Source: Spirochaetia bacterium
Lineage (GTDB): Bacteria; Spirochaetota; Spirochaetia; CADAEX01
NCBI GenBank assembly: GCA_963662795.1
Contig: OY759746.1
Location: 1,728,001 to 1,792,000 of the forward strand
Length of the DNA stretch: 64,000 nucleotides
Reading direction: 5' to 3'
A program made the translations under genes and the position numbers. The notes beneath the pieces are model-generated. The model did no database searches. It was given only the letters and a program-made list of their open reading frames with translations, and had not been told where the DNA came from. Positions 26,225 through 41,789 of the stretch are shown piece by piece. The number at the start of each line of letters is the position of its first letter. The first letter of the stretch is position 1.

Positions 26225-26685
26225 ATGATACTTGATTTACTTGAAAATCTTGACAGGTATAAATCTGTAGTACCGTTTACTGATAAGATATCGTTATATC
26301 TTAAGGGAAATGATATTAATATTCTTCCTGAAGGTAAATATCAGATTGAAGGAGAATCGATTTTTATTTTGATTCAGAAATATGATAGTCAGCCTGAATC
26401 AGAAAGAGAGGGGGAATCCCATAGGAAATATATTGATATCCAGTTTGTTCTAAACGGAGAAGAATATATTGCATATTTCCGATCCAGTATCTTGAGATCA
26501 GAGATTCGTATAATGCTGAAGAAGATATAATCATATATCAGAATGATAATAAAAACAGAAGTAAGACGTACATGACAAAGGATATCTTTGCTGTATTTTT
26601 TCCGGATGACGCTCATAAACCCGGTATTCTTGCCGGCAGGGAAAGTGCAGTAAAAGAGGCTGTAATAAAAGTAGCAGTAAAATGA
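26225..26685 (+). pseudogene. YhcH/YjgK/YiaL (NanQ-like) family gene with a 1-nt frameshift
   Basis: 5' frame gives ESHRKYIDIQFVLNGEE. The -1 frame from about 26476 gives FPIQYLEIRDSYNAEEDI...FAVFFPDDAHKPG...VIKVAVK with stop at 26683-26685. Confidence 0.82.
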
Positions 26686-26730
26686 TTTTCTGCTGTCGCT
26701 ACTGGTTGCAGAAGATCTTAGTTTAAAAAT

Positions 26731-27300
26731 TTATTCAATTATCAGGTCTTCAAGTCTTCTTTTGGGAACATGGTGTATCCACTTGTCATCCCGCCAGTAC
26801 TTGATTTCCCTGGGGTCTTTTACCTCGTCAAGCACAACTGTTTCCTTCGGCTTTCCAAGCGCTATTACAAGAATCAGTTCAAACCTGTCAGTAATTCCAA
26901 GTTCCTTTTTGAGGCCTTCCCTGTCGATTGAGCCGAACATGCATCCGCCGAAACCCTTTTCAACAGCACCCAGAAGAATGCTCTGGCAGGCTATTCCATG
27001 GTCCCAGAAGTGGTTGGCGCTGATTTCACTGTCGCCGAGCATGACAATGTAGGCTGAAGGTTTTTCCCCGTCTTTCGGCCCGTCCCAGTCCTTTAAGTAT
27101 CCTGCCCACCTGAGGTACGGGAATATCAGGCTGTTTTTCTTTTCATCACAGGAAAGGATATACTTAAGCGACTGAAGGTTTCCGCCTGTAGAGGAAAGCC
27201 TGGCAAGCTCTATAAACTCAAGGAGATCATCCCTCGGGATTTTTACATCCTGGTAAAACCGCCTGTATGTCCGGTTTTTTAAAATCAGATCCTTTATCAT
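26731..27300 (-). CDS. Nitroreductase family protein
   Basis: RTYRRF, S..NLQ.L, DHGIACQSILLGAVEKGFGGC and HHVPKR motifs. Confidence 0.9.
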   Translation of the reverse strand: MIKDLILKNRTYRRFYQDVKIPRDDLLEFIELARLSSTGGNLQSLKYILSCDEKKNSLIFPYLRWAGYLKDWDGPKDGEKPSAYIVMLGDSEISANHFWDHGIACQSILLGAVEKGFGGCMFGSIDREGLKKELGITDRFELILVIALGKPKETVVLDEVKDPREIKYWRDDKWIHHVPKRRLEDLIIE

Positions 27301-27427
27301 ATAAAAACCTCACTTAATTAAATATAATCCTGATCGGCAGAATAAGTTACTAAAATGTTTCCAGTTTTAATTAATACAGATTGTTTATCTCTTCTGGAGT
27401 TTTTCCTGCACTCTTAGGGAATTTTTC

Positions 27428-27985
27428 TCAATTCCAGCGGTTGTAGAAAAGCACTTCATCTATCGGTTTCCGGTCCCTGGGAGCTGTTTCAGAGAGAAGA
27501 TGCTTTTCATTAAGATGTTCTGTGCTGTCTCCTTTTACGCCGAGCGCAATCAGTGCTATTACTATATAAGCATCAGACACCCTGAATATTTCCTTGATTT
27601 TAAACGGATCAAAACCCGCCATGGGGTGGGCGATTAGTCCTTCTTTCTCCGCCTGCAGCATTATATTCATCACGGCAAGTCCGGTATCAAACAGTGCATA
27701 ATCCCGTCTGTCTGAAAGGCTGCACCCGAGAGAAATCTCAGTAAGGACTGCGATTATTGCCGGGCTTTTTCCTGCCCAGTAATTTGCCCCGGTAAGTGCT
27801 TCGTGAACTTTGCCGAGTGTTTCAGGATCATCCGCGGCAATAAATCTCCATGGCTGCCTGTTGAAGCAGGAAGGGGCAAGGGTAGCGGCTTTTATAAGAG
27901 TGTTTATTGTTTCCCGTGAGATTTTCTCTTCTTTTAACTTTCTTGAAGATCTTCTTTCGTAAATTTCTTTTAATATATTATTCAT
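27428..27985 (-). CDS. Nitroreductase family protein
   Basis: RRSSR, APSCFNRQPWRF and FDTGLA..N..LQA motifs. Confidence 0.9.
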   Translation of the reverse strand: MNNILKEIYERRSSRKLKEEKISRETINTLIKAATLAPSCFNRQPWRFIAADDPETLGKVHEALTGANYWAGKSPAIIAVLTEISLGCSLSDRRDYALFDTGLAVMNIMLQAEKEGLIAHPMAGFDPFKIKEIFRVSDAYIVIALIALGVKGDSTEHLNEKHLLSETAPRDRKPIDEVLFYNRWN

Positions 27986-28016
27986 ATATTAATATTAGCA
28001 CATTTTTTACCGGCCG

Positions 28017-28367
28017 CTACATATTTCTTGTCGCGACTATATTTACTCCCGTACCGAATATGTCCGCAATAACTATATCGCCCATTTTTACGGGAGAAGT
28101 AAGTTCCACCTTGTTTACAAGTTTCATAATCTCAAGCTTGTATTTTTCAGGTATCGGTTTATCTGTTTTCACAGGGATGACCTTGTGGATTCCCCCTTTT
28201 ATCTTCACGGTTGAACAGATCATCCTTGTAGGATTGGTTATTTCGTCTACCGCATAGCCGATTCCCCTTTTACATTTGTTCCCCGTTATCTGAAGATTGT
28301 CAACTTCCCCAGTTATTTTAAGCCTGCACCCGATAGGGCAGACAATACATACCAGTTCTTTTTCCAT
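28017..28367 (-). CDS. DUF1667 CxxC-containing small subunit associated with the G3P dehydrogenase complex
   Basis: CIVCPIGC...GNKCKRG..YA..E...P.R pattern; third gene of the glpA-type triad. Confidence 0.85.
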   Translation of the reverse strand: MEKELVCIVCPIGCRLKITGEVDNLQITGNKCKRGIGYAVDEITNPTRMICSTVKIKGGIHKVIPVKTDKPIPEKYKLEIMKLVNKVELTSPVKMGDIVIADIFGTGVNIVATRNM

Positions 28368-28369
28368 GG

Positions 28370-29629
28370 TTACACTAACCCCTCTGTTTCAAGTTTGATC
28401 CCGATATTGCCTGCAGCATTTTCAAATACGGATTTTTTAACTGTCTGTTTTATCATCTCGCCGGGAGTGAGATTTTTATGCCGGAACCTGGCAAGTTCCT
28501 TTTCCGAATCGCGTATAACTATCCAGGAGTCAGGATATACCTTGTCAACACGCATGAATAAATCAAGTTTTTCCAGCATGGCCGAGTATCTCAGCCTGTG
28601 AGGCACACAGTATGTCAGTCCGCCAGATACTGATGTATACATATACTCAGACTCGGTTTTTATCTCTCCCTTTACAAAACGGGCGGCATTGGCGCCGGCC
28701 CTCATGCTTTCCTCTGTAACAAAGTCAACCAGGTCGTGGACATGAACAACATTTCCGCACGCGAAAATTCCGGGGACCGATGTCTCCATGCTCTCGTTTA
28801 CTACCGGCCCGCCTGTTTTCCTGTCTATTTCTATACCCGCAAGGCGGGAGAGTTCGTTTTCCGGGATAAGCCCTACAGAAAGGAGAACAGTGTCGCATTC
28901 ATATTCTTTTTCAGTTCCCTTTATTACCTCTTTTTTAGCGTCAGTTTCCGCGATTACTACGCTTTCAACCCGCTCTTTGCCCTTTATTTCTATTATGTTG
29001 TGGTTTAAGAGCAGAGGAATATTGTAATGGTCGAGGCACTGGACAACATTGCGGGTGAGCCCTTTCGCGAATGAACTCCGTGCTATTACCGCGATAACCT
29101 CTCCCCCCTCAAGTACTATGCGCCTGGCCATAATCATCCCGATATCTCCTGACCCGAGGATTATTACCTTTTTCCCGACCATATAGCCTTCGATGTTGAT
29201 GTATCTCTGTGCTGTTCCCGCGGTAAAGATGCCGGCCGGCCTGTCTCCCGGAATAGCGATTGCTCCCCTTGTCCTTTCCCTGCACCCCATCGCAAGCACA
29301 ATTGCCCCGGCGCTTATGTTTACTATGCCGCTGCTGTTCATCGCCTTTATTTTTCTGTCTTTTGATATTGAAGTCACTATTGTGTCAAGCATTATATCGA
29401 TGTTGTCTTCATTAGCCATGTCTATGTAGCGCTGCGCGTACTCGGGGCCGGTAAGTTCTTCCTTGAATATATGAAGACCGAAGCCGTTGTGAATACACTG
29501 CTGGAGTATTCCTCCCGGTTCGACATCCCTCTCTATGATAAGTACCCTGGAAAGGCCGTTCTTTTTCGCCTCTATCGCGGCGCCGAGCCCTGCAGGCCCT
29601 CCGCCTATAACTACCGCATCGTAATCCAT
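28370..29629 (-). CDS. FAD/NAD(P)-dependent oxidoreductase, partner subunit of G3P dehydrogenase
   Basis: IGGGPAG, GGILQQCIHNGFG, ELTGPEYA, MGCRER and GNVVHVHDLVD motifs. Start set at MDYDAVV. Confidence 0.88.
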   Translation of the reverse strand: MDYDAVVIGGGPAGLGAAIEAKKNGLSRVLIIERDVEPGGILQQCIHNGFGLHIFKEELTGPEYAQRYIDMANEDNIDIMLDTIVTSISKDRKIKAMNSSGIVNISAGAIVLAMGCRERTRGAIAIPGDRPAGIFTAGTAQRYINIEGYMVGKKVIILGSGDIGMIMARRIVLEGGEVIAVIARSSFAKGLTRNVVQCLDHYNIPLLLNHNIIEIKGKERVESVVIAETDAKKEVIKGTEKEYECDTVLLSVGLIPENELSRLAGIEIDRKTGGPVVNESMETSVPGIFACGNVVHVHDLVDFVTEESMRAGANAARFVKGEIKTESEYMYTSVSGGLTYCVPHRLRYSAMLEKLDLFMRVDKVYPDSWIVIRDSEKELARFRHKNLTPGEMIKQTVKKSVFENAAGNIGIKLETEGLV

Positions 29630-29642
29630 TATGCCTCTCCTG

Positions 29643-31070
29643 TTATTTTGTTTTTCCTGTGAGGATATATGAGTGTTTTTTTTCAAGAACAACTTCCTCA
29701 AGCGGTTTTTTAAGTTCCCGTGAGATTATCTCCTGAACCCTCGGTCCGCAGAAGCCGCCCTGGCATCTTCCCATGCCGGCCCTGCACCTTCTTTTTACCC
29801 CGTCAACAGTTGTAGCTCCGGGACTGCGCCTGATCGAATCCACAATATCGCCTTCCGTGATATTCTCGCACCTGCATATAATCCTTCCGTAAAGGGGGTT
29901 TCCCCTGATTAATGCAGACTGGGCGCTTTCACTCATGTCAATGAAAAGCTTCCGTTTCACCAGCGGGTTAAAGTTTTTCTTTGCTGTAAAGGCGATGCCG
30001 GATTTTTTCATGATTTCAATCATGTAAAGCGCAACCGCGGGCGCCGCTGTAAGTCCTGGAGACTTTATTCCTGCGGCGTCAAAGAACCCGGGAGTCCCTT
30101 CCGCTTCCCTTATTATAAAATCCCCCGCGTCAGGCTCTGCCCTCATGCCCGCGAACGTTCTTATGCTGTTTCTTGTTGTAAGTTTCGGTACAAGAAGCTT
30201 TGCCCCGATTCTCGCTTTTTCAAGCAGCTCATCTGTAGTTGACAGGTCTTCCGGGTCATCAAGGTCATCGGATGACGGGCCGATCAAAAGATTTGTATGA
30301 ACTGTCGGGGTAACAAGTGTCCCTTTTCCCATCTTCGTGGGGCAGGGAAAAACCACTGAGTTTACAATATTGCCGTCGATTTTATCGAGGAGAAAGTACT
30401 GTCCCCGCCTCGGTTTGATTTTGAAAGAGGGTTTTGCCGCCATATTGTGCACTTTGTCGGCGAAAACTCCTGCGGCATTTATCACATACTTTGCCTCAAT
30501 TTTCTCACCGCCGCTTTCCAGAATATAAACTCCGCCCTCGTTTTTAATCGATTCTATATCAAAATTCAGCCTGTATTCGGCGCCGTTTTTAACAGCGCTT
30601 TCCATCATTGAAATTGTAAGGAGCATAGGGTCGATAATCCCGGCAGATTCCGCAAGCAGAGCCCCTTTCGCCTCCGGGTTCAGGGCCGGTTCCCTTTTAA
30701 GAAGTTCTTCCTGAGACAGTATGCTTAAAGCCGGTACGCCGTTATTTATCCCTCTCTGCATCAGTTTCCTGATATGGAGAAGCTGTTCATCGTCAAAGGC
30801 CACAACAAGCGAACCGTTGCGGCGGAATGGAACATCGAGTTCGGCGCAGAGTGTGTCAAACATCGCGTTTCCCTCAACATTTAATTTTGCCATCAGCGTG
30901 TTTTCTTCGGCATCATAGCCTGCATGGATTATGGCGGAATTGGCTTTTGATGTTCCGCAGGAAATATCATTTTCCCTGTCAAGGACAATAATCCTGAAAT
31001 TATATTTTGAAAGTTCTCTCGCAATTGCAGCCCCTGTTACGCCTGCGCCTATAATTGCAATATCGTACAT
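29643..31070 (-). CDS. glpA: FAD-dependent glycerol-3-phosphate dehydrogenase (GlpA-like) with C-terminal BFD-like [2Fe-2S] domain
   Basis: IIGAGVTG, GTSKANSAIIHAG, SPGLTAAPA and CRCE...R.GMGRCQGGFC motifs; lies near glpP. Confidence 0.8.
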   Translation of the reverse strand: MYDIAIIGAGVTGAAIARELSKYNFRIIVLDRENDISCGTSKANSAIIHAGYDAEENTLMAKLNVEGNAMFDTLCAELDVPFRRNGSLVVAFDDEQLLHIRKLMQRGINNGVPALSILSQEELLKREPALNPEAKGALLAESAGIIDPMLLTISMMESAVKNGAEYRLNFDIESIKNEGGVYILESGGEKIEAKYVINAAGVFADKVHNMAAKPSFKIKPRRGQYFLLDKIDGNIVNSVVFPCPTKMGKGTLVTPTVHTNLLIGPSSDDLDDPEDLSTTDELLEKARIGAKLLVPKLTTRNSIRTFAGMRAEPDAGDFIIREAEGTPGFFDAAGIKSPGLTAAPAVALYMIEIMKKSGIAFTAKKNFNPLVKRKLFIDMSESAQSALIRGNPLYGRIICRCENITEGDIVDSIRRSPGATTVDGVKRRCRAGMGRCQGGFCGPRVQEIISRELKKPLEEVVLEKKHSYILTGKTK

Positions 31071-31083
31071 TTTGAAGCCTCCT

Positions 31084-31160
31084 CAGGGCATAAAAAAACC
31101 AGATAAAAAGACACCGAACCCGTTGTCGTTTTATCTGGCTCTCTTTTATCTCCAGCCATT
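31084..31160 (-). promoter_or_regulatory. GlpP-type antitermination leader, copy 1 (upstream of glpA)
   Basis: Minus strand AATGGCTGGAGATAAAAGAGAGCC runs into stem CCAGATAAAA/TTTTATCTGG plus T7. Upstream promoter TTGACA (31214-31209)-18-TAGAAT (31190-31185). Confidence 0.75.
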
Positions 31161-31286
31161 TTTATATTCTTTATGCTTATAAATATTCTATAATAATCTG
31201 TATCTCTTTGTCAATTAATAATATACTCAAATAAACCAAAAGCGGTAAATGTTTTAACATGCATTTCCGGAAAACGGGGATTTTAC

Positions 31287-32432
31287 ATGGCTTTATTAAC
31301 TGCATCAATTATGTTCCTTATTTATCTTTATACGGTTATTTTTTTAATCAGTCATATTTTTGTCATTGCCGGGCTTCTTTCCTCATTCAGAAGGGAAAGG
31401 AATGCCGGCAGGGCTGTTATGCCTGATGTGAAAGTATCTGTGATTGTCCCTGCGAGGAATGAGGCAGAAACACTGCCCGCTCTTTTCACTTCCCTGCTCA
31501 GCCAGAGTACGGATAATTTTGAGATAATTCTCATTAATGACAGGTCGGATGACAACACCCTTGATGTGATGAAAAGTTTCAGGGATGCCAATCCGTCCCG
31601 TGTAAAGGTCATTGAAAACAGAAAGTCCTTTACCGGCAAAAACCCGAAGCAGATGGCGCTTTCTCTTGCCGAGACAATCGCCGATGGTGAAATATTCCTT
31701 TATACAGATGCTGACTGCCAGGTCCCTGTAAAATGGGTTGAATATATGATTAAGCCTTTCAGCAGACCTGAAACAGGGCTTGTTTTTGGAACTGTGACTG
31801 TAAATAACGATAAAACCCTGCTGGAAAGGTTTCAGCAGTATGATCACCTTTTGAGATACCACTATACAGCCGCCTCTGCGGGGCTTAACATTCCTACCGG
31901 CGGTTTCGGCAATAATCTTGCGGTGAGAAAAAAAGCGCTTGATGATATCGGAGGGTTCGGCGCACTTGAGTATACCGTTACAGAGGATGCCCAGCTGATT
32001 GCGAGGGTGAGGGATACCGGGAAGTGGAAGATTTTTGCCCAGACTTCAGCTGACTCCATGGTAAGTACAGTGCCTGTTAAAACCTGGAAGGAGCTGTATC
32101 TGCAGGAACTCAGGTGGAGCACAGGCGCCATCCATGCCCCTGATATTGCTTCCAGGGTCGGCTACGGGTTTATCATGTATCAGCTTCTGATCGGTATAAT
32201 CCTGTTTATACCGGCTTTTTTTAATCCCTTTTTCTTCCCTGTCTTTTTTTGCGGAATCGTTTCCATGCTTTCTGTTTCACTGACTTACGGGCTTCATCTG
32301 AAGCCGGGTCTTTCATTCTGGAAGACACTGCCTCTCTCTCTGGTGATTGCACAGTTTCTTTTCCCCATAGTCACTGCAAGGGCTTCCTTCCGGCCGTCAG
32401 TTATATGGAAGGGCAATAAACTTGATACATGA
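31287..32432 (+). CDS. Glycosyltransferase family 2, membrane-bound
   Basis: VIVPARNE, DRSDD, TDAD (DxD), TED and QELRW (QxxRW); N- and C-terminal TM helices. Confidence 0.9.
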   Translation: MALLTASIMFLIYLYTVIFLISHIFVIAGLLSSFRRERNAGRAVMPDVKVSVIVPARNEAETLPALFTSLLSQSTDNFEIILINDRSDDNTLDVMKSFRDANPSRVKVIENRKSFTGKNPKQMALSLAETIADGEIFLYTDADCQVPVKWVEYMIKPFSRPETGLVFGTVTVNNDKTLLERFQQYDHLLRYHYTAASAGLNIPTGGFGNNLAVRKKALDDIGGFGALEYTVTEDAQLIARVRDTGKWKIFAQTSADSMVSTVPVKTWKELYLQELRWSTGAIHAPDIASRVGYGFIMYQLLIGIILFIPAFFNPFFFPVFFCGIVSMLSVSLTYGLHLKPGLSFWKTLPLSLVIAQFLFPIVTARASFRPSVIWKGNKLDT

Positions 32433-32514
32433 TTTATGCTTGATCAGAGGCGATGGGTAAGCAGCGCCGGAGCGACTTACTGATTCTATGAAAAGAATAC
32501 TTAAACGGCATAAG

Positions 32515-33081
32515 TTACATAATCCAGGTGTCATGCCTGGTGGATGATACGGAACAGGCCCCGGCGTCGAGGGCTGTCATTATATCTTCCCTGTCTGTAA
32601 TAAGGCCCCCGGCTATAACCGGCATGTGTGTGGAAGCTGCAAAAAGCTTTATGACTTTAGGCATAAGACCGGGGAGGATTTCAATTGCATCCGGTTTGCA
32701 TTCCTTTATAGCCTTGAAGCCCGAGTCGATTGAAAGTGAGTCGAGGATGAAAAAACGCTGTATAACAAATATTTTTCTTTCCTTTGCAGATTTTACAAGG
32801 CTTGTCTTGGTGGTTATTATTCCGTCTGTCTGTGTCTGATCCGCAAGATAATCAAGCGCGTAAACTGATCTTGCAAGCCCTTCCACAAGATCAAAGTGGA
32901 TAAATGCAATTTTGCCTGAATCCTTGACTTTCCCTACCAGTCTTGAAATGTTGGTGATTGTCGAGGTAAGTATGAAAATAATTTCGTTGTCGGTCCTAAG
33001 TGCATCGTCAAGGTCTTTTTCATCCTTGACCGCAGGAATTATAGGATTGCTGCGGAAAGCTGCTACAATATCTGGAATCAT
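32515..33081 (-). CDS. glpP: Glycerol-3-phosphate-responsive antiterminator
   Basis: PIIPAV, FIHFDLVEGL, GIITTK, IQRFFILDS, EILPG, IAGGLI and VSST motifs. Confidence 0.95.
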   Translation of the reverse strand: MIPDIVAAFRSNPIIPAVKDEKDLDDALRTDNEIIFILTSTITNISRLVGKVKDSGKIAFIHFDLVEGLARSVYALDYLADQTQTDGIITTKTSLVKSAKERKIFVIQRFFILDSLSIDSGFKAIKECKPDAIEILPGLMPKVIKLFAASTHMPVIAGGLITDREDIMTALDAGACSVSSTRHDTWIM

Positions 33082-33146
33082 ATTGGTTAATTATTTATCA
33101 GCCTGAATACTTTGTCAAACCCTAACCCCTTTAAATAATTAAATAT

Positions 33147-33262
33147 TTGACATTCTTATATTTTAGGGATTATACTAATGTCAGTACAAGATGGCGGAGT
33201 AACAGAGAGCCGGGAAAATGAGGCACAAAGTGTTGTCTTGTTTTGCCGTTTTTTTTTGCCCT
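33147..33262 (+). promoter_or_regulatory. Promoter plus GlpP-type antitermination leader, copy 2 (upstream of the SBP gene)
   Basis: TTGACA (33147)-18-TATACT (33171). GATGGCGGAGTAACAGAGAGCC runs into stem CGG.AAAA.GAGGCA/TGTCTT.TTTT.CCG plus T9. Confidence 0.72.
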
Positions 33263-33401
33263 GATGTCTCTGGATAGACATGACTCTGTCTTGATACTTT
33301 TTTGGCTTTTATATCTTAAATAATAAATTATCACCCTTTCGATACGGGAAAAATTAATTATTAAGATGTATAATTGAATATGATTTCCAGAGGAGGAAAC
33401 A

Positions 33402-34490
33402 ATGAAAAAGTTATTATTGGTTTTTTTATGCCTTGCAGTACTTGCATCAGGCGTCTTTGCCGGCGGTAAGAAAGAAGCGGCGAAAGAAGAGAACAAGGTC
33501 CTAAGGCTCATATCCTGGACAGGATATGCTCCCGCAGACCAGATTGCGAAATTTAAAGAAGAAACAGGCATTACTGTTGAGGTTACTTTCAGCAGCAACG
33601 AAGAGATGATATCAAAGCTCAGGGCGACAAGAGGCGGCGGATTTGATCTTGCCCAGCCTTCACAGGACAGGATTTCAGCGATGGTTGAAGAATTCGGTAT
33701 ATATCAGCCTATCGATTATTCAAAGGTTAACACAGCTCAGCTTGACCCTAGCATGCTTGCAGCGACAAAAAAATATACAGAAGTTAACGGCAAATCATAT
33801 GCAGTTCCCCATGTGTTCGGAACATCAGGTCTTATTGTAAACAAGGCAAAAGCTCCTGACGTAAAAGACTACAAAGATCTTCTTGATCCCAAATATACAG
33901 GAAGAACTGCCTACAGAATGAAGAGACCGACAATCCTTGCTATGGGATTCTCACTTGGTTATGATCCCTTTGCTCTCTACAGCGACAAGGCTGCTTACCA
34001 GAAATATCTTGATGAAATAGGCGATGTTCTTATCAAGGCAAAACCGGTTGTAAGAAACTACTGGGAAAACGGAGATGCGCTTCTTGAATCAATGAGATCA
34101 GGCGAAGTATGGGCAGCAATGGGCTGGGAACAGCAGGCCTGGAAGCTTTATAAGGAAAACAAGGACATCGATTATGTTGCGCCGGCGAGCGGATCAATGG
34201 CATGGGTTGACACATTCGCAATTCCCGCAAAATCAGAAAATGTTGAAGGCGCCTACAAGTGGATCAACTTCGTACTTAAACCTGAAAATGCCGCAGCTTT
34301 CACAAATGTGGAAAATTACGGAACATCATCAAAAGACGCTGTGAAATTCCTGAATCCAGAAGCAGCTGCCAACTTCTCAAGGTGCTTTACACCGGAAGTT
34401 ATGGCAAAAATGAACTGGTATCCGACAGTTCCAGCCGGTCTTGAAGAGATGGAAGGAAAGACAATGGACAAGATCAAGGCTTCCAAGTAA
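33402..34490 (+). CDS. ABC transporter substrate-binding protein, PotD/PotF-like fold
   Basis: Signal peptide ...FAGGKKE; W.GYAP...KFKEETGI.V, SNEEMISKL, WVDTFAIP and AYKWINF motifs. Confidence 0.88.
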   Translation: MKKLLLVFLCLAVLASGVFAGGKKEAAKEENKVLRLISWTGYAPADQIAKFKEETGITVEVTFSSNEEMISKLRATRGGGFDLAQPSQDRISAMVEEFGIYQPIDYSKVNTAQLDPSMLAATKKYTEVNGKSYAVPHVFGTSGLIVNKAKAPDVKDYKDLLDPKYTGRTAYRMKRPTILAMGFSLGYDPFALYSDKAAYQKYLDEIGDVLIKAKPVVRNYWENGDALLESMRSGEVWAAMGWEQQAWKLYKENKDIDYVAPASGSMAWVDTFAIPAKSENVEGAYKWINFVLKPENAAAFTNVENYGTSSKDAVKFLNPEAAANFSRCFTPEVMAKMNWYPTVPAGLEEMEGKTMDKIKASK

Positions 34491-34515
34491 GAATTGGTCC
34501 TGAAATAATTGTAAA

Positions 34516-34608
34516 ATGCCGGCGGTTTCTGTATCGAAGCGGAGTTTTGGAACCGCGTTTCAGGGTTTCACCCTGAAGGGGCGAGTTTAAGATACACCCC
34601 GCCGGTAT
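34516..34608. repeat. Long nested hairpin containing a REP-like core
   Basis: ATGCCGGCGG/CCGCCGGTAT, TGTATC/GATACA and inner TTCAGGG-TTTCA-CCCTGAA. Confidence 0.5.
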
Positions 34609-34616
34609 CACTTTTT

Positions 34617-34688
34617 CGGCAAAGAGACATGAGAGCCGGAAGATAAGGTATTTGTTAAATGACCTTGTTTGCCGGTTTTTTTATGCCG
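34617..34688 (+). promoter_or_regulatory. GlpP-type antitermination leader, copy 3 (between SBP and ATPase genes)
   Basis: CGGCAAAGAGACATGAGAGCC runs into stem GCCGG.AGATAAGGT/ACCTTGTTT.CCGGT plus T-run, then ATGCC. Confidence 0.7.
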
Positions 34689-34868
34689 GCAGTTGCAGAT
34701 CCTTCGGTGATAAGTATATAAACCTGACGCGGTATTGGTATTTTGATCTTTAAAACCTTCATGACAGGGTTTATAATATTTATTGAGGAAAGCAATTGTG
34801 ATACATCTGCGGCTCGTCCGGGCAAAAGATTCATGTTGATAAAAAATTTATTATAGAGGTATTGAAAG

Positions 34869-35975
34869 ATGCAGATTGATTTATCGGTTAAGGAACTTAC
34901 CAGGAAATTCGGCGAATTTACAGCTGTCGACAGGGTATCTTTCAATGTTGAAAGCGGCAAATTCTTTTCAATACTCGGCCCTTCCGGCTGCGGTAAAACA
35001 ACCCTGCTTAGAATGATAGCAGGTTTCTATGAACCCACCAGTGGTGCCATAGAAATCCGGGGCGATGACATGGCAGGGGTTGAGCCCAACAGGCGACCGG
35101 TTAATCTGGTTTTTCAGCACCTGGCGCTTTTTCCCATGATGGATGTCAAGGAAAATATTGCATTCGGACTCAAGAGACGGGGAGAGAAAGGGCCGGCTGT
35201 TTACAAAAAAGTTAACGACCTGCTGGAAAGAGTAGGTCTTCCGGAACAGGCTAACAAGAAAATCAGCCAGCTTTCAGGGGGGCAGAAACAGAGGGTCGCA
35301 ATAGCAAGATGCCTTATACTTGAACCTGCCGTCCTCCTTCTTGACGAGCCGCTCGGCGCGCTTGATCTCAAACTAAGGGAGCATATGAAGGTTGAGCTCA
35401 AGAAGCTGCAGGTACAGGTCGGAACAACGTTTGTGTATATCACGCATGACCAGTCTGAGGCGATGGTTATGAGCGATTATGTAGCTGTCATGAATTCAGG
35501 CCACTTTGAACAGCTTGATACACCCCAGACCCTGTACAACAATCCCCAGTCCTCCTTTGTCGCCCAGTTTGTCGGTGACAATAATCAGTTTATAGGAATA
35601 CTTCACCGTGATGAGAACGGCTCCCATTATGTAGTAACAGATGATAAGAGAAAATATCTTGTAAGGGAATGCGACTTATCCGACGGGGAAAGGGTTGAAA
35701 TGTATATAAGGCCTGAGGCGGTCATAATTAAACCTGATGCGGGAAAAGCCAATTTCAATACTGTTAAAGTTCTTGTAAAAGCGATACTTTTCGACGGAGC
35801 CAACAGCCGTCTGCTTGTTGTGCTGGATGGGAGTGATAAAGAGCTTATAGTTTCCCTGCCCCAGAACAGGCAGTTTGACTATATCAAATCGGGCGATTCC
35901 ATTGAAATCGGCTGGGACATCAAATCTGCTGTCTGTTTCAGGGAATCAGGAGTTAAAGCTTATGCTGAACTCTAA
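34869..35975 (+). CDS. ABC transporter ATP-binding protein, PotA-like
   Basis: GPSGCGKTT, LSGGQKQR, LDEPLGALD and ITHDQSEA motifs; C-terminal TOBE-like region. Confidence 0.92.
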   Translation: MQIDLSVKELTRKFGEFTAVDRVSFNVESGKFFSILGPSGCGKTTLLRMIAGFYEPTSGAIEIRGDDMAGVEPNRRPVNLVFQHLALFPMMDVKENIAFGLKRRGEKGPAVYKKVNDLLERVGLPEQANKKISQLSGGQKQRVAIARCLILEPAVLLLDEPLGALDLKLREHMKVELKKLQVQVGTTFVYITHDQSEAMVMSDYVAVMNSGHFEQLDTPQTLYNNPQSSFVAQFVGDNNQFIGILHRDENGSHYVVTDDKRKYLVRECDLSDGERVEMYIRPEAVIIKPDAGKANFNTVKVLVKAILFDGANSRLLVVLDGSDKELIVSLPQNRQFDYIKSGDSIEIGWDIKSAVCFRESGVKAYAEL

Positions 35976-36819
35976 ACATAATAAAATCAGATGGGGTTTC
36001 TGGATTTTCTTTATACCGGTTTTTCTCTGGCTCTTTCTCCTCATTATCCTTCCCCATATCGAGCTTTTAAGGATGTCTTTTTTTGAAAGAAAATCCGGGT
36101 TTACCATTGCAAACTATGCAGCCTTTTTTACAGAGCCTATCTACTGGCTTACGTTTGTAAGAACAGCCTTGTATTCGATAATAGTAACATTTATTGTTCT
36201 TGTTGTGGCGCTGCCTGTTTCTTTCTATGTTACAAAGGTTTCAGGATTCAAGGTGCAGGGTTTTCTTATGGTGCTCCTCCTCCTGCCGTTCTGGGTAAGC
36301 GAACTGATCAGGGTTTACGGCTGGATGATACTGCTCCGGGAAAGCGGGGTAATCAACAAGATTCTTGTGGGAATGGGTTTTTGGGACCAGCCTGTCGAGA
36401 TGCTCTACAATGATGCTGTTATGATAATGGGGCTTGTATATACCTCAATACTTTTTATGGTTATCCCAATAATAGGCGTTATGGAAAGCCTTGATGATTC
36501 CTATATAGAAGCAGCCTATGATCTCGGCGCCAAAAAGATGGTAATCTGGCAGAAGATCATTATCCCTCACTGCATGCCGGGTATAATGTCGGGATCAATT
36601 GTTGTTTTCATGCTTGTTCTTGGAAGTTATCTGACTCCAAACCTTATGGGAGGCAAGAATTCCCTCTGGTTTACCCAGCAGATATATAATCAGTTTATAA
36701 CATATTTCAACTGGAATCAGGGCGCCGCTTTCGGCTTTCTCCTTCTCCTGATGTCTTCGGGAATTATATGGGTAGCTCTCCGGCTTACGGGGCAGCAGCT
36801 TAGCGAGGTGGTAAAATGA
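35962..36819 (+). CDS. ABC transporter permease, PotB-like
   Basis: LLPFWVSELIRVYGW and EAAYDLGA (EAA loop). Start at ATG 35962 after AGGAG. Confidence 0.9.
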   Translation: MLNSKHNKIRWGFWIFFIPVFLWLFLLIILPHIELLRMSFFERKSGFTIANYAAFFTEPIYWLTFVRTALYSIIVTFIVLVVALPVSFYVTKVSGFKVQGFLMVLLLLPFWVSELIRVYGWMILLRESGVINKILVGMGFWDQPVEMLYNDAVMIMGLVYTSILFMVIPIIGVMESLDDSYIEAAYDLGAKKMVIWQKIIIPHCMPGIMSGSIVVFMLVLGSYLTPNLMGGKNSLWFTQQIYNQFITYFNWNQGAAFGFLLLLMSSGIIWVALRLTGQQLSEVVK

Positions 36820-37670
36820 TAAGATCACTTCCCAGATCAACCGCATATAAAACAACCTATTCCCTGTTTATTTTCCTCTATTTTTTGTTTCTTTTCGCCC
36901 CTCTGCTTGTTACCTGTATACTTGCGTTTAACGATTCAATGTTCCCTTCCCTGCCCTGGAACGGGTTTACGCTTGACTGGTTTACAGGGGCCGGACCTGA
37001 AAAAATAGGTATTTTTAATGATAAAATAAACCTCCGCAGTATCGGAGTATCTTTCAGGGTCGCTGTTGCTGTTTCGGCACTTTCGACCGTAGTCGGCACC
37101 TGTGCCGCATTCCTGTTTGAGCAGGAGAATTTCAGATTCAAAAACCTCTTCTATTTTCTTATGCTTGCTCCCCTTGTAATACCGGGCGTTATACTGGGTA
37201 TATCTATCCTGTTGTTTTCAAATCTTGCAGGTATATTTTTTGAAGAAAAACTGGGTATGGATGTTAAATTGTTCAGCCCCGGTACATGGCTTGTTATTAT
37301 GGGGCAGTTTTCTTTTATCACGACTTTTGTCGCGCTTGTCGTCGGGGCCAGACTCAAGAAATTTGACAAAACCCTTGAAGAGGCGGCATACAACCTGGGC
37401 GCAAACAGGTTTGAGGTTATCTGGTTCATTACATTGAAATTTTTACGCCCTTCAATAATCGGAGGAGCGGCAGTAGCGTTTCTGATGTCGTTTGAAAATT
37501 TTAATACAACCCTTTTTCTTGTAGGTTCTGAAGCAACCCTGCCCATCAATCTGTATCTGCAGGTAAGGGACGGCTCAACGCCTGTAATTAACGCAATATC
37601 CTTTCTACTGATACTTTCTACTTCCATATTTGCAGTTGCCAATCTCTATTTTTCAAAGAAGGAGGAATAG
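36816..37670 (+). CDS. ABC transporter permease, PotC-like
   Basis: WNGFTLDWF, LEEAAYNLGA, SFENF and TLPI motifs. Confidence 0.9.
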   Translation: MIRSLPRSTAYKTTYSLFIFLYFLFLFAPLLVTCILAFNDSMFPSLPWNGFTLDWFTGAGPEKIGIFNDKINLRSIGVSFRVAVAVSALSTVVGTCAAFLFEQENFRFKNLFYFLMLAPLVIPGVILGISILLFSNLAGIFFEEKLGMDVKLFSPGTWLVIMGQFSFITTFVALVVGARLKKFDKTLEEAAYNLGANRFEVIWFITLKFLRPSIIGGAAVAFLMSFENFNTTLFLVGSEATLPINLYLQVRDGSTPVINAISFLLILSTSIFAVANLYFSKKEE

Positions 37671-37686
37671 AAAGGGACGGGAGATA

Positions 37687-37786
37687 TTGTTTATACTTAA
37701 GCTTGAAAATATAATAGTAAAGGCAGGATTTAAGAGAGCCGTGGTCCGTAAGGTGTTAAAATATACCGGGGATCCCGGCTTTTTTA
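37687..37786 (+). promoter_or_regulatory. Promoter plus GlpP-type antitermination leader, copy 4 (upstream of DHH and kinase genes)
   Basis: TTGTTT (37687)-17-TATAAT (37710). AAGGCAGGATTTAAGAGAGCC runs into stem AGCCG.GGTCC...GGATC.CGGCT plus T-run. Confidence 0.68.
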
Positions 37787-37900
37787 CGGAATAAGAGGAA
37801 TTGAGGACAGAAAGATAAGGCCGGATAACTGAAAACCGGTAAATCATCCGGAAAAGCTGTGCTGACCGGATCAATGGAGAAATGATAAAGGGGTGGAGCG

Positions 37901-39154
37901 ATGGATTTAAGTGACGCGATGGAAAAATATCTGAAAGACATCAGGGGCGGAATTGAAAAAATGAAAAGCTACGGATCAAAAGAGCTTATCCTTCTGCATC
38001 ATAACGATTCTGACGGACTTACATCCGGGTCGATTCTGCTTAGGGCTTTCAAGCGCGCAGGTTTCAGTGTGAGCCGGTTTTCACTTGAAAAACCGTATCC
38101 TGCCGTTCTTGAAAAACTGTTTGATGAAAACAGCGGGAAGATCGTTGTCTTTGCGGATTTTGCCGGAAAGATTGCCCCTATAATTGCAGAAATCAACAGG
38201 GGGAGAAATCTTGTTCTTCTGCTCGATCACCACAGGGCAGAGCCGTCACCTGATGAATCTGTTCTTAATCTTGACCCGGACCTTTACGGCCTGAGGGGCG
38301 ACAGGGACATATCCGCATCGGTCGTCTGCTATTATTTTGCGGTGGAACTTGATAAGGCAAACCGCGACCTTGTTCATATCGCAGCTTTCGGCGGAATCGC
38401 AGATTTCTACTATCTTGACAGGAAGGTCCACTCATACAACAGGCTCTGCTTTGAGGAAGCTGTGAAATCTGGCCTTATGAGAAGCGATAACGCCGGAGGA
38501 GAGGAGAGGTTTTATATCACTCTGGGAGAAATGGAATTGGATGTTGTTGATTTTTATCCTCTTCTTGATATCGCAGGGGGTGTAGGTTTTTATAACGGCG
38601 GGCCTGAACTTGGTATTTCCATTCTGCTTGAAGGACTTACTCTCGGTAAACTTGAAAAAATTGAAAAGCTTAAAAAAATCAAGGACTCTCTTTTCGCGCA
38701 GGAACTTGAAACCCTTAAAAAGGGTGGGCTGCACGATACCGGCAATATCCAGTGGTTCGATACAAAAGAAAAGTTCTCTCCTATGGGAGTAAAAATGATC
38801 GGAGTTTTTTGCGAAGAGATAGCGGAACTTGATTTTCTTGACCACGGGAAATATCTCGCAGGTTTTCAGATAATACCTGATACAGTTCCCGGATTCGGTA
38901 CTGTAAAGATGGGACAGACAAAGATTTCTATGAGAAGTTCATCAGAACTCTCTAAAAAAATAATTGATAAGAAAATGCCCGGAATGAGTGATTTTCTTCC
39001 TGAAGCGACAAATAATCTGGGCGGATTCGCGGATGCCTGCCACAGCATAGCAGCTGCGACTACGATCAACGCAGGACGGGAAAGCGAGCTTATGGATGAA
39101 ACACAGAAAGTTCTGGAATCAAAAATGAAGAAAAATGGAGGATTAAATGGGTAA
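37901..39154 (+). CDS. DHH family phosphoesterase
   Basis: HHNDSDG (motif I), FADF (motif II), LDHH (motif III), G.IAD; C-terminal ISMR...H..AA resembling DHHA1. Confidence 0.85.
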   Translation: MDLSDAMEKYLKDIRGGIEKMKSYGSKELILLHHNDSDGLTSGSILLRAFKRAGFSVSRFSLEKPYPAVLEKLFDENSGKIVVFADFAGKIAPIIAEINRGRNLVLLLDHHRAEPSPDESVLNLDPDLYGLRGDRDISASVVCYYFAVELDKANRDLVHIAAFGGIADFYYLDRKVHSYNRLCFEEAVKSGLMRSDNAGGEERFYITLGEMELDVVDFYPLLDIAGGVGFYNGGPELGISILLEGLTLGKLEKIEKLKKIKDSLFAQELETLKKGGLHDTGNIQWFDTKEKFSPMGVKMIGVFCEEIAELDFLDHGKYLAGFQIIPDTVPGFGTVKMGQTKISMRSSSELSKKIIDKKMPGMSDFLPEATNNLGGFADACHSIAAATTINAGRESELMDETQKVLESKMKKNGGLNG

Positions 39155-40124
39155 GGGGACTGCTTTTGGAAAATCTATTCTTATTGGCGATCAGTTTGTT
39201 TTAAACGGGGTGCCTGCAATACTATCCGCGCTGCCGTATCAGACAGAAACAATTGTTGAAAGGACGCCTGGTCTCGGCGGAAGGGGTTTTACCGTTGTTG
39301 ACAACAGGGTTGAGGTTCCGGGATACAAAAAGAAAAAAGAGGAAGCCTGCTACAGATCGTATGAGCAGATGATAAAGGTGATGGGACTTGATCTTAAAAA
39401 GAACCCGATAAAAATTACTGTCGGAGGCGACCTGCTTGCCGGGAGCGGTGTAGGGGCGAGCGCCGCGATAAGCGTTTCATTTGCCCGTGCGTGCAACAGG
39501 GAATTCAATCTGGGCCTTGATGCGATTGAGGAGAACTATATAGGCTGGGAGGGTGAGCATGCCTACCACGGTATTCCGAGCGGTGTAGACAATACAGCAT
39601 CATCCTTCGGCGGACTCATGATGTACATGATCCGGGACGGGAAAAAAATGTATGAAAGAATTGTCCCGGCCAAACCTCTTTATATTGTTCTTGCCAACAG
39701 CGGTGTCACATATAACACTGCCCTTCTTGATGAGCATGTTGAGGGGATGATTAAAAACAATCCCGAACTTTTCTACACTACAATGAGTAAAATTACATCC
39801 CAGGTGTATGAAATGAAAAAGGCGATTGAATCAGGCGATCTTGCATCAGCCGGTAAAATCATGACAGAAAACCACAGGCTGCTGATTGATATGGATTTAA
39901 GCCAGGAAAGGCTGATTGAGCTTTGCGGAAGGTCCATAGAGATGGGCGCTTACGGCGCAAAGCTTACCGGCGGCGGGAAGGGAGGCTACATGGTCGCGCT
40001 TGTGAAAGATGCGGATATGCAGAAAAAGATAGCATCGAAATTCGAGTCTGAAGGCGTTCCTGTCATAACTGCCCAGCTTGGAATCAATGCCGCGGATAAC
40101 GTTAAGTTCAGGATCCTTAAATAA
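39147..40124 (+). CDS. Mevalonate kinase-like GHMP kinase (substrate uncertain)
   Basis: GKSILIGDQF (canonical GK.IL.GEH), GSGVGASAA ATP loop, E..YHG.PSGVD catalytic Asp and KLTGGGKGG. Overlaps the DHH gene stop. Confidence 0.82.
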   Translation: MGKGTAFGKSILIGDQFVLNGVPAILSALPYQTETIVERTPGLGGRGFTVVDNRVEVPGYKKKKEEACYRSYEQMIKVMGLDLKKNPIKITVGGDLLAGSGVGASAAISVSFARACNREFNLGLDAIEENYIGWEGEHAYHGIPSGVDNTASSFGGLMMYMIRDGKKMYERIVPAKPLYIVLANSGVTYNTALLDEHVEGMIKNNPELFYTTMSKITSQVYEMKKAIESGDLASAGKIMTENHRLLIDMDLSQERLIELCGRSIEMGAYGAKLTGGGKGGYMVALVKDADMQKKIASKFESEGVPVITAQLGINAADNVKFRILK

Positions 40125-40148
40125 AACTTACTCGCTGTTAAAGCGGGG

Positions 40149-40196
40149 AGGGCAGCCGGAACCGGAAAATACCGGAAGACGGGCTGCCCTTTTTTT
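40149..40196 (+). terminator. Intrinsic terminator
   Basis: AGGGCAGCC...GGCTGCCCT followed by a T-run. Confidence 0.7.
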
Positions 40197-41001
40197 ATTT
40201 TCTTTTGGCAAGAATTATCTGAGAAGCCTCATAAAAACCTTCCGCGTCATTCTTTTCTGTGACATACACGGGATAGTGCTTCATGATGGGAAGAAATTTT
40301 TTGATGTTTGCGACTGCAATTGTATGTTTGAGAGCTTTAAACATAGGCTCATCATTCTGGGAGTCTCCCGCGAAAATTATTTTATCCTGAAGCGCTTCAA
40401 GCTCCTTCCCTGTAAAATCCTTAAGAAGCATCCTGAAGCATGTAAGCTTGTCATAATCTCCGTACCAGCAATTTATGTGGATACTTGATATTTTATAAAC
40501 TGCTTTCTCTTCATCAAGAATACTGCAGATTTTATCCATTTCATTTTTATTCAGCGGCGGGACATCTTCGCAGAAATCAATTGCAAGGTCGGCAATCCTG
40601 AAATCCTGATCCGACGCAATACCTGCGTTCGGCACTTCCTTCAGAACCCTCTCTTTTATTTTATTGAGTCTGTCCCTGCCCTGTCTTCTATCCTCATCGC
40701 TCTGGAGATATTTTCTTATTACTTTTCTCTGCTGCGGATCATAGGAAAAATAAAAGGCGCCGTTTTCACCTACAACCCCCGCAACCGGCCACATCCTTGC
40801 GATGTGATCGCACCATCCGGCAGGACGCCCTGTTACAGGCACTATTTTTATACCTGCATCATGAAGTTTCCAGATTGCCTCAAAGGTTGATGAGGGAAGT
40901 TTCCCCCCGGTAGTGATTGTGTCATCAATATCCGTAAAAAGGTAAAGGAGGTTTTTGCAAAGGTCCTCCGGAATTTCGTTTACATGCGTTATGGGTTTCA
41001 T
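40195..41001 (-). CDS. HAD superfamily subfamily IIB hydrolase (phosphatase)
   Basis: DIDDT motif I, VTGR motif II, K and GDSQND motif IV. Start set at MKPITH after GGAGAGG. Confidence 0.9.
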   Translation of the reverse strand: MKPITHVNEIPEDLCKNLLYLFTDIDDTITTGGKLPSSTFEAIWKLHDAGIKIVPVTGRPAGWCDHIARMWPVAGVVGENGAFYFSYDPQQRKVIRKYLQSDEDRRQGRDRLNKIKERVLKEVPNAGIASDQDFRIADLAIDFCEDVPPLNKNEMDKICSILDEEKAVYKISSIHINCWYGDYDKLTCFRMLLKDFTGKELEALQDKIIFAGDSQNDEPMFKALKHTIAVANIKKFLPIMKHYPVYVTEKNDAEGFYEASQIILAKRK

Positions 41002-41090
41002 TATCCTCTCCGTTGAGAGAATATTATTTATTGAAGGATTCATCAATAGAGGGTTTGACACGGGATATTATAATTTTGTATTGTGAATTT

Positions 41091-41789
41091 ATGATAATAG
41101 CACACAGGGGGGCAAGCGCGTATGCCCCGGACAATACAATAGCCGCGATAAACAAGGCATTTGAACTAGGAGCAGACGGCATAGAAATAGATGTTCAGAT
41201 GAGCCGTGATGGTGAACTTTTTATTTTTCATGACTGGAACCTTGAAAAAGTAACAGGTGATAAAGCCTTGATTACATCAAAAAGCTCGGCGGAAATAAAA
41301 AATATTGATGCAGGAAGCTGGTTCTCTCCGGAATTCGCCGGCGAGAAAATACCAAAGCTGGATGAGGTGCTGGATATAGTGCCTAAGGGTAAGCTGGTTA
41401 ATATTGAGATAAAGAAAACTGTTTTAGACACAAGACCGGTTGAAGAAAAGGTTGTAAGGCTGGTAAGTGATAAGGGGATGACCGGGAATGTCATTATTTC
41501 ATCTTTTAATCATAGAACCATTTCAATCGTTGAGAAGATCGACGCCGAAATAAAGACAGCCCTTATCATGGCATCACAGCTGGTAAATCCGATGAAGTAT
41601 CTAAGTAATTTCAGATGCTACAGTTTCCATCCGGTTTTATATTATGCAGATGAGCAGCTTGTAAAAGAGCTCCATGCAAATAACATTAAAATATATCCCT
41701 GGGTGGTAAACGATGCTTTTTATGCAAAAGCGCTTACCGGCGCCGGCTGCGACGGGATAATTACCAATTATCCGGATCTTAAATTTTAA
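41091..41789 (+). CDS. Cytoplasmic glycerophosphodiester phosphodiesterase (GDPD, UgpQ-like)
   Basis: IIAHRGAS..APDNT, GIEIDVQ, HD, NIEIK, ISSF and GIITNYP motifs. Confidence 0.93.
   Translation: MIIAHRGASAYAPDNTIAAINKAFELGADGIEIDVQMSRDGELFIFHDWNLEKVTGDKALITSKSSAEIKNIDAGSWFSPEFAGEKIPKLDEVLDIVPKGKLVNIEIKKTVLDTRPVEEKVVRLVSDKGMTGNVIISSFNHRTISIVEKIDAEIKTALIMASQLVNPMKYLSNFRCYSFHPVLYYADEQLVKELHANNIKIYPWVVNDAFYAKALTGAGCDGIITNYPDLKF

Follow-up and report, generated by a model that had tools for sequence, protein, structure and literature searches.

The window that we analysed is a stretch of 64,000 nucleotides (G000:C1:1728001-1792000) from the genome of a Spirochaetia bacterium, which is a single contig of 3.93 Mb with 39.7% G+C. 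Labels of the form Gnnn stand for genomes throughout, G000 being the source of the window. Our subject is an RNA element that occurs four times around glpP, the gene for a predicted glycerol 3-phosphate (G3P)-responsive antiterminator. It stands ahead of a G3P dehydrogenase operon and at three points of an operon for an ATP-binding cassette (ABC) transporter, a DHH-family phosphoesterase and a GHMP kinase. We took the layout of the locus from the open reading frame listing and from family scans with Pfam and NCBIfam, and it is given here in window coordinates. The bit scores of the leaders come from two covariance models: R1, which we built from the six copies in this genome, and R2, which we built from 50 matches in several taxa.

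28017-28367, minus strand: DUF1667 protein, gene 3 of the G3P dehydrogenase operon (PF07892, 108 bits)
28370-29701, minus strand: Pyr_redox_2 flavoprotein, gene 2 of the G3P dehydrogenase operon (PF07992, 124 bits)
29643-31070, minus strand: GlpA/GlpD-like flavin adenine dinucleotide G3P dehydrogenase/oxidase with DAO and BFD 2Fe-2S domains (PF01266, 255 bits; PF04324)
31082-31158, minus strand: leader 1, before the G3P dehydrogenase operon, with the stem UGGCU/AGCCA (R1 72.4 bits, R2 56.0 bits; fold -27.6 kcal/mol, z = -4.6)
31287-32432, plus strand: GT2/GT21-type glycosyltransferase, without a leader of its own (PF00535, PF13506)
32515-33081, minus strand: glpP, G3P-responsive antiterminator (PF04309, 214.5 bits, residues 1-173 of 173)
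33190-33265, plus strand: leader 2, before the binding-protein gene (R1 67.1 bits, R2 63.6 bits; fold -25.2 kcal/mol)
33402-34490, plus strand: exported PotD-fold substrate-binding protein (SBP_bac_8; signal peptide)
34616-34692, plus strand: leader 3, between the binding-protein and ATPase genes (R1 71.3 bits, R2 59.5 bits; fold -29.4 kcal/mol, z = -5.0)
34869-35975, plus strand: ABC ATPase with a TOBE domain (PF00005, PF08402)
35875-36819, plus strand: ABC permease 1 (PF00528)
36816-37670, plus strand: ABC permease 2 (PF00528)
37719-37795, plus strand: leader 4, before the DHH and GHMP genes (R1 66.6 bits, R2 54.3 bits; fold -27.6 kcal/mol)
37901-39154, plus strand: DHH-family phosphoesterase of a subfamily of about 400 amino acids (PF01368, 27.0 bits against a cut-off of 28.1, just below)
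39147-40124, plus strand: GHMP kinase, a relative of mevalonate kinase (PF00288 and PF08544, both above cut-off)

The glpP match is the only one in the genome, and the gene lies between leaders 1 and 2. In the alignments the element has a fixed order: GGC and, after 9-11 nucleotides (nt), a GAGAGCC that never varies, followed by a hairpin and then a T-run. All six copies in the genome have a predicted stable hairpin followed by the T-run, that is, an intrinsic terminator, ahead of the gene. Predicted folds have energies of -25.2 to -29.4 kcal/mol (z = -2.7 to -5.0), with 0-3 of 200 shuffles equally stable. An initial annotation, made from the letters of the window, had described the four copies around glpP, and both the sequences themselves and their placement by the covariance model bore out all four. 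It had also pointed to a T-run-(AT)GCC ending in three of them. This holds for three of the four copies in the window and three of the six in the genome, and some of the minimum-energy folds pair the ending with the 5' GGC. As it is not retained in the sister genus (g4), we gave it no weight as a feature.

Aligning the leaders and building a covariance model had been proposed as a check, and both models isolate the same six copies in the genome. With R1 these score 66.6-74.5 bits, and the runner-up, at 25.0 bits, is the opposite strand of leader 1. With R2 they score 54.3-68.6 bits and the runner-up 28.2 bits, so that the gap to the next match exceeds 25 bits under either model. Taken by itself, the heptamer GAGAGCC occurs 9 times in the window where 5.8 occurrences are expected, which is no significant excess. 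The initial annotation had raised the concern that the motif might be common in unrelated terminators genome-wide; with only six strong matches in 3.93 Mb, the whole element is highly specific and thus not common among them.

The two copies outside the window were found by a genome-wide regular expression, at G000 558909 and 2667782, and have equal T-run spacing. The one at 2667779-2667855 (leader 6) precedes genes for UgpB, UgpA, UgpE and UgpC, which score 546.7, 354.2, 355.4 and 492.2 bits against NCBIfam cut-offs of 411, 335, 297 and 432, all above. By these family scores the leader-preceded UgpBAEC is a G3P importer of the canonical type. Behind the copy at 558907-558982 lies a second ABC importer, composed of a weakly PhnS2-like substrate-binding protein, a fused double permease and an ATPase that is most UgpC-like (374 bits, below cut-off). 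Unambiguous G3P genes make up two of the six leader targets, namely the dehydrogenase operon and UgpBAEC.

The promoter-like sites that match the consensus best in this region stand before leader 1, glpP and leader 2:

31185-31214, minus strand: TTGACA-18-TAGAAT, upstream of leader 1, 11/12 consensus matches (a consensus match only)
33090-33118, minus strand: TTGACA-17-AATAAT, for glpP, 11/12 consensus matches
33147-33176, plus strand: TTGACA-18-TATACT, upstream of leader 2, 11/12 consensus matches

The motif of leader 2 begins 17 nt past the -10 hexamer. Ahead of leader 4 we found TTGTTT-17-TATAAT by eye (37687-37715), and upstream of leader 3 there is no such site. Since leader 3 lacks a promoter-like site and follows a hairpin, the transcripts on which it acts probably start at the leader-2 promoter and read through. 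The hairpin (34520-34615, between the binding-protein gene and leader 3) is long and GC-rich (CCGGCGG...CCGCCGG), is present in G002 too with a different interior, and may stabilise the mRNA or serve as a partial terminator. A further promoter-like site, TTTAAA-17-TATAAT (10/12, 34749-34777), lies between the leader 3 terminator and the ATPase gene and could allow GlpP-independent expression of the membrane components. In the RNA library X22, which contains contigs of a relative that is about 93% identical, a 1937-nt contig over 33344-35260 runs from the binding-protein gene through leader 3 into the ATPase gene, of which it covers the first 390 nt; contigs do not reveal the ends or levels of transcripts, DNA carry-over is possible, and the contig is not interpretable as a transcript.

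The conserved part of the element can be drawn as a small stem, which we call P1, around a loop of 11-17 nt that carries two GAGA boxes. The stem varies by lineage, with GGC(U)/(A)GCC, GGU/ACC, GUG/CAC and UUACC/GGUAA forms, around two GAGA boxes that are retained. Its 3' strand coincides with the bases that open the 5' arm of the terminator. In the minimum-energy folds the second GAGA box is paired to the U's at the start of the T-run, and in Peptostreptococcaceae it pairs with a perfect CUCUC. Because the P1 3' strand and the second box are both shared with the terminator base, a protein that held loop and stem would remove that base.

We looked for the element and for GlpP in 61 genomes, the source genome and 60 relatives, with a threshold of E <= 0.001 for R1 and the family cut-off for GlpP. 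R1 matched in six of them (G000, G001, G002, G005, G008 and G011), and GlpP was likewise present in six (G000, G001, G005, G008, G011 and G041). Five genomes have both and 53 have neither; G002 is the only one with the motif and no GlpP, and G041 the only one with GlpP and no R1 match. Among these relatives the element is almost confined to GlpP-encoding genomes.

The sister genus (G005, G008 and G011) retains the full arrangement with a leader at all four places, which is the outcome of the comparison with homologous loci that the initial annotation had suggested. The flanking proteins there are 65-82% identical and the GT2 glycosyltransferase 56%. G005 also has a leader before UgpB. Downstream of the dehydrogenase operon, G005 (L029, about 6838) and G008 (L033, about 5120) have a second Pyr_redox_2 paralogue with an extra leader before it; this paralogue with its leader has no counterpart in the window. 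G008 has in addition a second glpP (L034 = G008:C14:15000-30000, 4554-8055), in a small cluster that also holds a GDPD gene, a gene for a 273-amino-acid protein and a binding-protein paralogue of 57% identity. A variant leader at G008:C14:19431-19499 keeps GGC/GCC, and its boxes read GTGT...GTGA.

G002 belongs to the same genus as the source genome, with 78-98% protein identity and 95% completeness. At its syntenic site (L127 = G002:C1:1-20000, about 9564-15316) glpP and the dehydrogenase operon are missing, and the GT2 gene abuts nitroreductase genes. Leader 3 of this genome has lost both boxes and the terminator, leader 2 has a mutated second box and leader 4 looks intact. The picture is mixed, and it is suggestive of partial erosion of the leaders.

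Outside the spirochaetes, a scan of one genome per species with the GlpP alignment yielded 52 loci, 5 from Spirochaetia and 47 from Firmicutes. The GlpP proteins nearest after the five Spirochaetia loci are clostridial, at up to 53% identity. R1 gave 38 matches (E <= 1) in 24 of the 47 Firmicute loci; 35 of the 38 are on the strand of glpP and many sit directly after it. These leaders read GGC, 1-2 bases, GAGA, 3-5 bases, GAGAGCC and terminator. A relaxed regular expression run on 23 of the 47 loci added six more and found none in the Paenibacillus, Ornithinibacillus and Thermoanaerobacteraceae loci among the 23. On named Paenibacillus, Ornithinibacillus, Clostridium and Romboutsia genomes R1 gave weak matches only. 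The 47 loci share the dehydrogenase operon with our window (DUF1667 in 29, Pyr_redox_2 in 32, a GlpA-like dehydrogenase in 33), and none of them has a DHH, GHMP, PotD-fold binding protein or GT2 gene at E <= 1e-10. Two glpP genes lie about 8 kb apart in Clostridium bovifaecis (G063, C1:347106-359626). R2 matched seven times in this species (E <= 0.1); four of the matches surround the two genes within about 12 kb and two or three more lie elsewhere in the genome, so multi-leader GlpP regulons are not limited to spirochaetes.

A local R2 scan of 12 glpP loci from the clostridial sample gave 4 matches, each directly downstream of glpP. In our Bacillales sample 33 of 41 genomes encode GlpP, and 10 of 24 glpP loci have an R2 match (E <= 1) immediately downstream of glpP on the same strand. 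The nine of these that we read have two GAGA boxes 3-4 bases apart and mostly a GUG/CAC-type stem that runs into a terminator. The ygcP island of E. coli has divergent ygcW and yqcE leaders, in which a 5-bp stem (UUACC/GGUAA and UUACU/AGUAA) encloses AGAGA-N3-4-GAGAAA with a terminator directly after.

Several observations weigh against reading the elements as targets of GlpP. The co-occurring genomes among the relatives come from two genera, so their counts are not independent; G041 encodes GlpP without an R1 match, and G002 has no GlpP yet keeps leader remnants, including the intact-looking leader 4. Across 101 Clostridia genomes R2 matched in 2 of 29 that are GlpP-positive and 2 of 72 that are GlpP-negative (about 35 bits), in a whole-genome scan that, with its strict filters and 46 candidates scored per genome, is too insensitive to test for an association. 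R2 scores in Bacillales are weak (14-32 bits, 31.9 and below; E 1.5e-4 to 0.6), and the E. coli leaders reach at most 15.8 bits with R1. With scores this weak, the link to the experimentally studied leaders rests on architecture, as seen by eye and with our own helix finder. A P1 of at least 3 bp flanking an 11-17 nt loop is found in 52 of 53 distinct instances and one of at least 4 bp in 32 of 53, compared with means of 34.4 (maximum 42) and 10.6 (maximum 18) when the 5' flank was shuffled 200 times, but the windows of the helix finder were picked with pairing in mind and this inflates the P1 count. We had set aside column-wise counting of P1 pairs, since MAFFT misregistered the 5' strand, and used the helix finder with the shuffle control instead.

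On the other side stand the lone glpP amid the elements, the copy before the Ugp genes, the co-occurrence of element and GlpP, and the architecture shared with Clostridia and Bacillales. From this we consider it very probable that the elements are GlpP-responsive antiterminator leaders, as the initial annotation had proposed for the four copies in the window. In B. subtilis the terminators in the 5' untranslated regions of glpD, glpFK and glpTQ are where G3P-bound GlpP exerts its effect (PMC9604022, PMC10573289 and PMC7430163). By homology with that system, we expect that the spirochaete GlpP would bind these leaders and would do so in a G3P-dependent manner.

The operon that carries three of the leaders calls for a closer look at its proteins. 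Its binding protein has PotD, PotF and Lmo0810 as its best structural relatives, and it falls below both polyamine models of NCBIfam (PotD NF007048, 140.1 bits against 582; PotF, 121.7 against 636). In PotD, E36, E171 and D257 are the acidic residues that hold spermidine (PMC4096761). The binding protein has E36G and E171T (I in genus g2), together with D168K and arginine at the positions of T166 and A169. D257 is retained in all 7 of the orthologues and paralogues, and E36 and E171 are lost; the pattern of E36G, E171T/I and new basic residues holds across orthologues of three genera. The protein retains the residues aligned with PotD W34, Y37, S83, W229, W255, D257 and Y293. Apart from D257, we take these to be contact residues in PotD. 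Judged from these positions, the pocket combines aromatics with one acid and newly gained basic residues, which would suit a ligand that bears both an ammonium and an anionic group. The ABC ATPase is likewise loosely assigned, its top NCBIfam matches being PhnT2 and PotA types, every one below cut-off. Permease 1 probably starts downstream of its listed open reading frame start; its orthologues have 288-289 amino acids in most of the relatives that we compared.

The GHMP kinase falls below both of its nearest models (TIGR00549, 152.2 bits against 163.05; NF003036, 129 against 403), and its best solved relative is the mevalonate kinase of Leishmania major (PDB 2HFS/2HFU, 184 bits). In mevalonate kinase E24 and H25 are strictly conserved, and H25, V202 and T283 form the C3-methyl pocket (PMC1851959). 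The equivalents of the catalytic K18 and D155, and of S152, are retained here, whereas E24D, H25Q, V202D and T283G are found in 6 of 6 orthologues. We found no HMG-CoA reductase in the genome and no mevalonate diphosphate decarboxylase above 20.7 bits; it encodes IspH of the methylerythritol phosphate route (296 bits). In view of the changed pocket residues and the missing pathway, we dropped mevalonate uptake as a role of the operon. The reading in the initial annotation implies that the labels "polyamine" and "mevalonate kinase" are wrong, and this is supported: the first fails on the missed PotD equivalog and on the loss of two of the three spermidine acids, the second on the four changed residues and the missing pathway.

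For the DHH protein, N-terminal domains of archaeal RecJ/GAN proteins in the PDB match at 1e-13 to 9e-20. Its HHNDSDG, LDHH and GGFADACH motifs, which are those for metal binding and catalysis in the family, are invariant in 8 orthologues. It is cytoplasmic, with no signal peptide. The leads from the ESM Atlas are unnamed DHH clusters and clusters named "mevalonate kinase family", mostly from Archaea and Thermodesulfobacteriota. In the dehydrogenase operon, the top NCBIfam match of the GlpA-like protein is a type 2 G3P oxidase at 345 bits, below the cut-off of 460.

The transporter operon is not tied to GlpP. Among the family relatives (n=19), 18 have the DHH gene, 15 the GHMP gene and 14 the binding protein. 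In genus g2, whose genomes have 1.2-1.8 Mb and in which neither GlpP nor the motif was found, the six genes lie side by side, no more than 52 nt apart, and dapB and dapA follow. Since the operon is present there without GlpP or leaders, its function is not GlpP-dependent. The operon of binding protein, ATPase, permeases, DHH and GHMP is older than its GlpP control. The simplest reading would be that a clostridial-type system of glpP, dehydrogenase and leader entered the lineage and that leaders were then placed at three points of the operon.

We also searched a metagenome set, which gave 80 loci with a relative of the DHH protein (46-97% identity), the DHH gene being called in 78. Where at least 700 nt lay downstream of DHH (58 loci), GHMP was the next gene on the same strand in 49 and within two genes in 2 more; it was absent in 7. 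The DHH-GHMP pair is tightly conserved well beyond this family. In the 45 loci of at least 6 kb, a PotD-type ABC system was found in 15, Ugp genes in 3, GDPD in 5 and HAD-IIB in 7, and 20 had a transporter (PotD-type or Ugp) or GDPD. The top unnamed upstream neighbour of the metagenome DHH gene is a HAD-IIA phosphatase (17 loci). A stand-alone protein like the editing domain of archaeal-type threonyl-tRNA synthetase is encoded just upstream in three of the DHH-GHMP loci. R2 placed a leader before DHH in only the two closest relatives among the 80 loci, and weakly.

The right flank of the cluster in the window has further genes of this kind, among them two syntenic neighbours:

40195-41061, minus strand: HAD-IIB (Cof-type) phosphatase, syntenic neighbour without a leader (TIGR01484, 75.8 bits)
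41013-41789, plus strand: GDPD glycerophosphodiester phosphodiesterase, syntenic neighbour without a leader (PF03009, 165 bits)
41823-42743, minus strand: PfkB kinase

GDPD is near the cluster also in G005, G011 and G002, and the position of the GT2 glycosyltransferase is unchanged in G005, G008, G011 and G002.

Gene context and the changed pocket residues make a role of the DHH-GHMP pair in processing imported glycerophospho compounds plausible. The compound that the importer and the pair handle may be an anionic amine, for instance the head group of a glycerophosphodiester, and its processing would yield G3P. Our best guess at the substrate is a phospho-amine glycerophosphodiester, and our confidence in any specific substrate is low. 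A broader reading, which we offer tentatively as possible, is that DHH and GHMP, usually with a HAD phosphatase, form a widespread and hitherto unrecognised cytoplasmic salvage route for head groups of the glycerophosphoethanolamine or glycerophosphocholine type. A PotD-derived importer would have been re-tooled for it, with a pocket changed from polyamine to phospho-amine, and a GlpP acquired from Firmicutes would have been wired in at three checkpoints, so that the released G3P would itself induce uptake and breakdown.

It is also conceivable that the leaders are true GlpP leaders and that the operon behind them encodes an ordinary polyamine importer and an unrelated housekeeping DHH-GHMP pair, which came under G3P control through the shared operon alone. 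The state of the operon in genus g2, where it lacks GlpP and leaders and runs into dapB-dapA, agrees with this, as do the near absence of R2 matches before the metagenome DHH genes, the PotD, PotF and Lmo0810 folds, and the retention of D257 and of the aromatics aligned with W34, W229, W255 and Y293. Set against this are the loss of two of the three spermidine acids (E36G, E171T/I) with lysine or arginine at T166, D168 and A169 in three genera, and the insertion of three separate leaders into one operon and their maintenance in two genera. The second glpP of G008, beside a paralogue of the binding protein and GDPD, and the distant metagenome DHH-GHMP pairs that adjoin Ugp, GDPD and HAD genes are also hard to fit to polyamine import. 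We regard this explanation as rather unlikely.

The initial annotation had gone further and suggested that the transporter and the DHH-GHMP pair replace glpF, glpK and glpT for the use of glycerol or G3P, which would make the GHMP enzyme a glycerol kinase. Part of this stood: we searched the genome for MIP/GlpF and for GlpT and found neither, and the GHMP enzyme does retain its catalytic residues in a changed pocket. The part concerning glpK did not, because the genome encodes a canonical glycerol kinase (G000 190965-192440, 722 bits against the NCBIfam cut-off of 590) and the leader-bearing UgpBAEC. Moreover, the module also occurs in relatives that have neither GlpP nor the dehydrogenase, and the Asp at V202 and the mixed acidic and basic pocket of the binding protein would fit a charged amine better than glycerol. 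Such a replacement is therefore very unlikely. The apparent operon of glpK (G000:C1:186500-197500, 3219-6526) holds a flavin-reductase-like gene, glpK and an Fe-alcohol dehydrogenase gene. As it has no GlpP leader, glycerol catabolism and G3P catabolism seem to be separately controlled.

Returning to control by GlpP, we propose the following mechanism. The RNA would first fold into the small hairpin, in which P1, of 3-5 bp, closes a purine loop of 11-17 nt that contains both GAGA boxes, and the P1 3' strand and the second box double as the base of the 5' arm of the terminator. If there is no inducer, the terminator would form and transcription would halt. With G3P, GlpP would bind the hairpin and its loop and sequester those bases, and the polymerase would read on. 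The six elements would act as 5' leaders or intra-operon attenuators that are read by a single GlpP. The predicted regulon comprises the three-gene dehydrogenase operon, UgpBAEC, the second ABC importer and the older operon of binding protein, ATPase, two permeases, DHH and GHMP, whose transcription would pass three successive leader checkpoints. A protein-independent riboswitch or attenuator that senses G3P or another metabolite and merely lies near glp genes is extremely unlikely: the elements are indeed conserved leader RNAs with a terminator, to which GlpP binding is only predicted, but a stem of 3-5 bp with a loop of 11-17 nt is smaller than a typical metabolite pocket would require, the element goes with glpP in Spirochaetia, Clostridia, Bacillales and E. 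coli, leaders 2 and 3 have decayed in the GlpP-less G002, and an Rfam scan of 26000-42000 of the window (E <= 1) matched no family.

The GlpP regulon proposed here resembles that of B. subtilis in its full-length PF04309 regulator and in the terminator leaders before G3P dehydrogenase and G3P uptake genes, and it resembles those of Bacillales in the two GAGA boxes and in a small hairpin that overlaps the terminator (theirs being directly downstream of glpP). It differs from B. subtilis in phylum (Spirochaetota), in its stem (GGC/GCC instead of GUG/CAC), and in having six leaders, three of them serial in one operon. Among its predicted targets are a PotD-fold importer and a DHH-GHMP pair, which are not reported as glp genes in the literature that we searched, whereas glpK is no target here and glpF and glpT were not found. 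The E. coli ygcP-island leaders are similar in that a short stem closes a two-box loop right before a terminator, beside a gene of the GlpP family; their stem has another 5-bp sequence, their cargo is a sugar-type cluster and the model match is weak. Of the encoded proteins, the importer is like E. coli PotABCD in fold and operon type and unlike it in its pocket substitutions, its equivalog score (140 against 582) and its control by GlpP leaders. The kinase shares K18, S152 and D155 with the Leishmania major enzyme; unlike mevalonate kinase, it carries the substitutions E24D, H25Q, V202D and T283G, in a genome without a mevalonate pathway.

In the open literature we found no consensus for the GlpP RNA target and no GlpP in spirochaetes; subscription papers, including those of the Rutberg laboratory, and supplements lie outside this coverage and may print a consensus. 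In the part of a 2025 review of RNA-binding antiterminators (PMC12591593) that was available, the term GlpP has zero occurrences. What this locus adds is the phylum, a proposed regulon of six leaders in which one operon has three serial checkpoints, and a re-tooled PotD-fold importer recruited together with a widespread DHH-GHMP pair.

GlpP antitermination has been studied almost only in B. subtilis. Together with the leaders of Clostridia, Bacillales and E. coli, those described here point to a simple target, a short stem around a loop with two GAGA boxes that overlaps a terminator. The regulation places an importer that is routinely labelled "polyamine" and a DHH-GHMP pair found in many uncultured lineages in the setting of glycerol-phosphate metabolism, which would narrow the screens for ligand and substrate. 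It also suggests that an acquired regulator can take over a resident operon by the insertion of leaders at three points.

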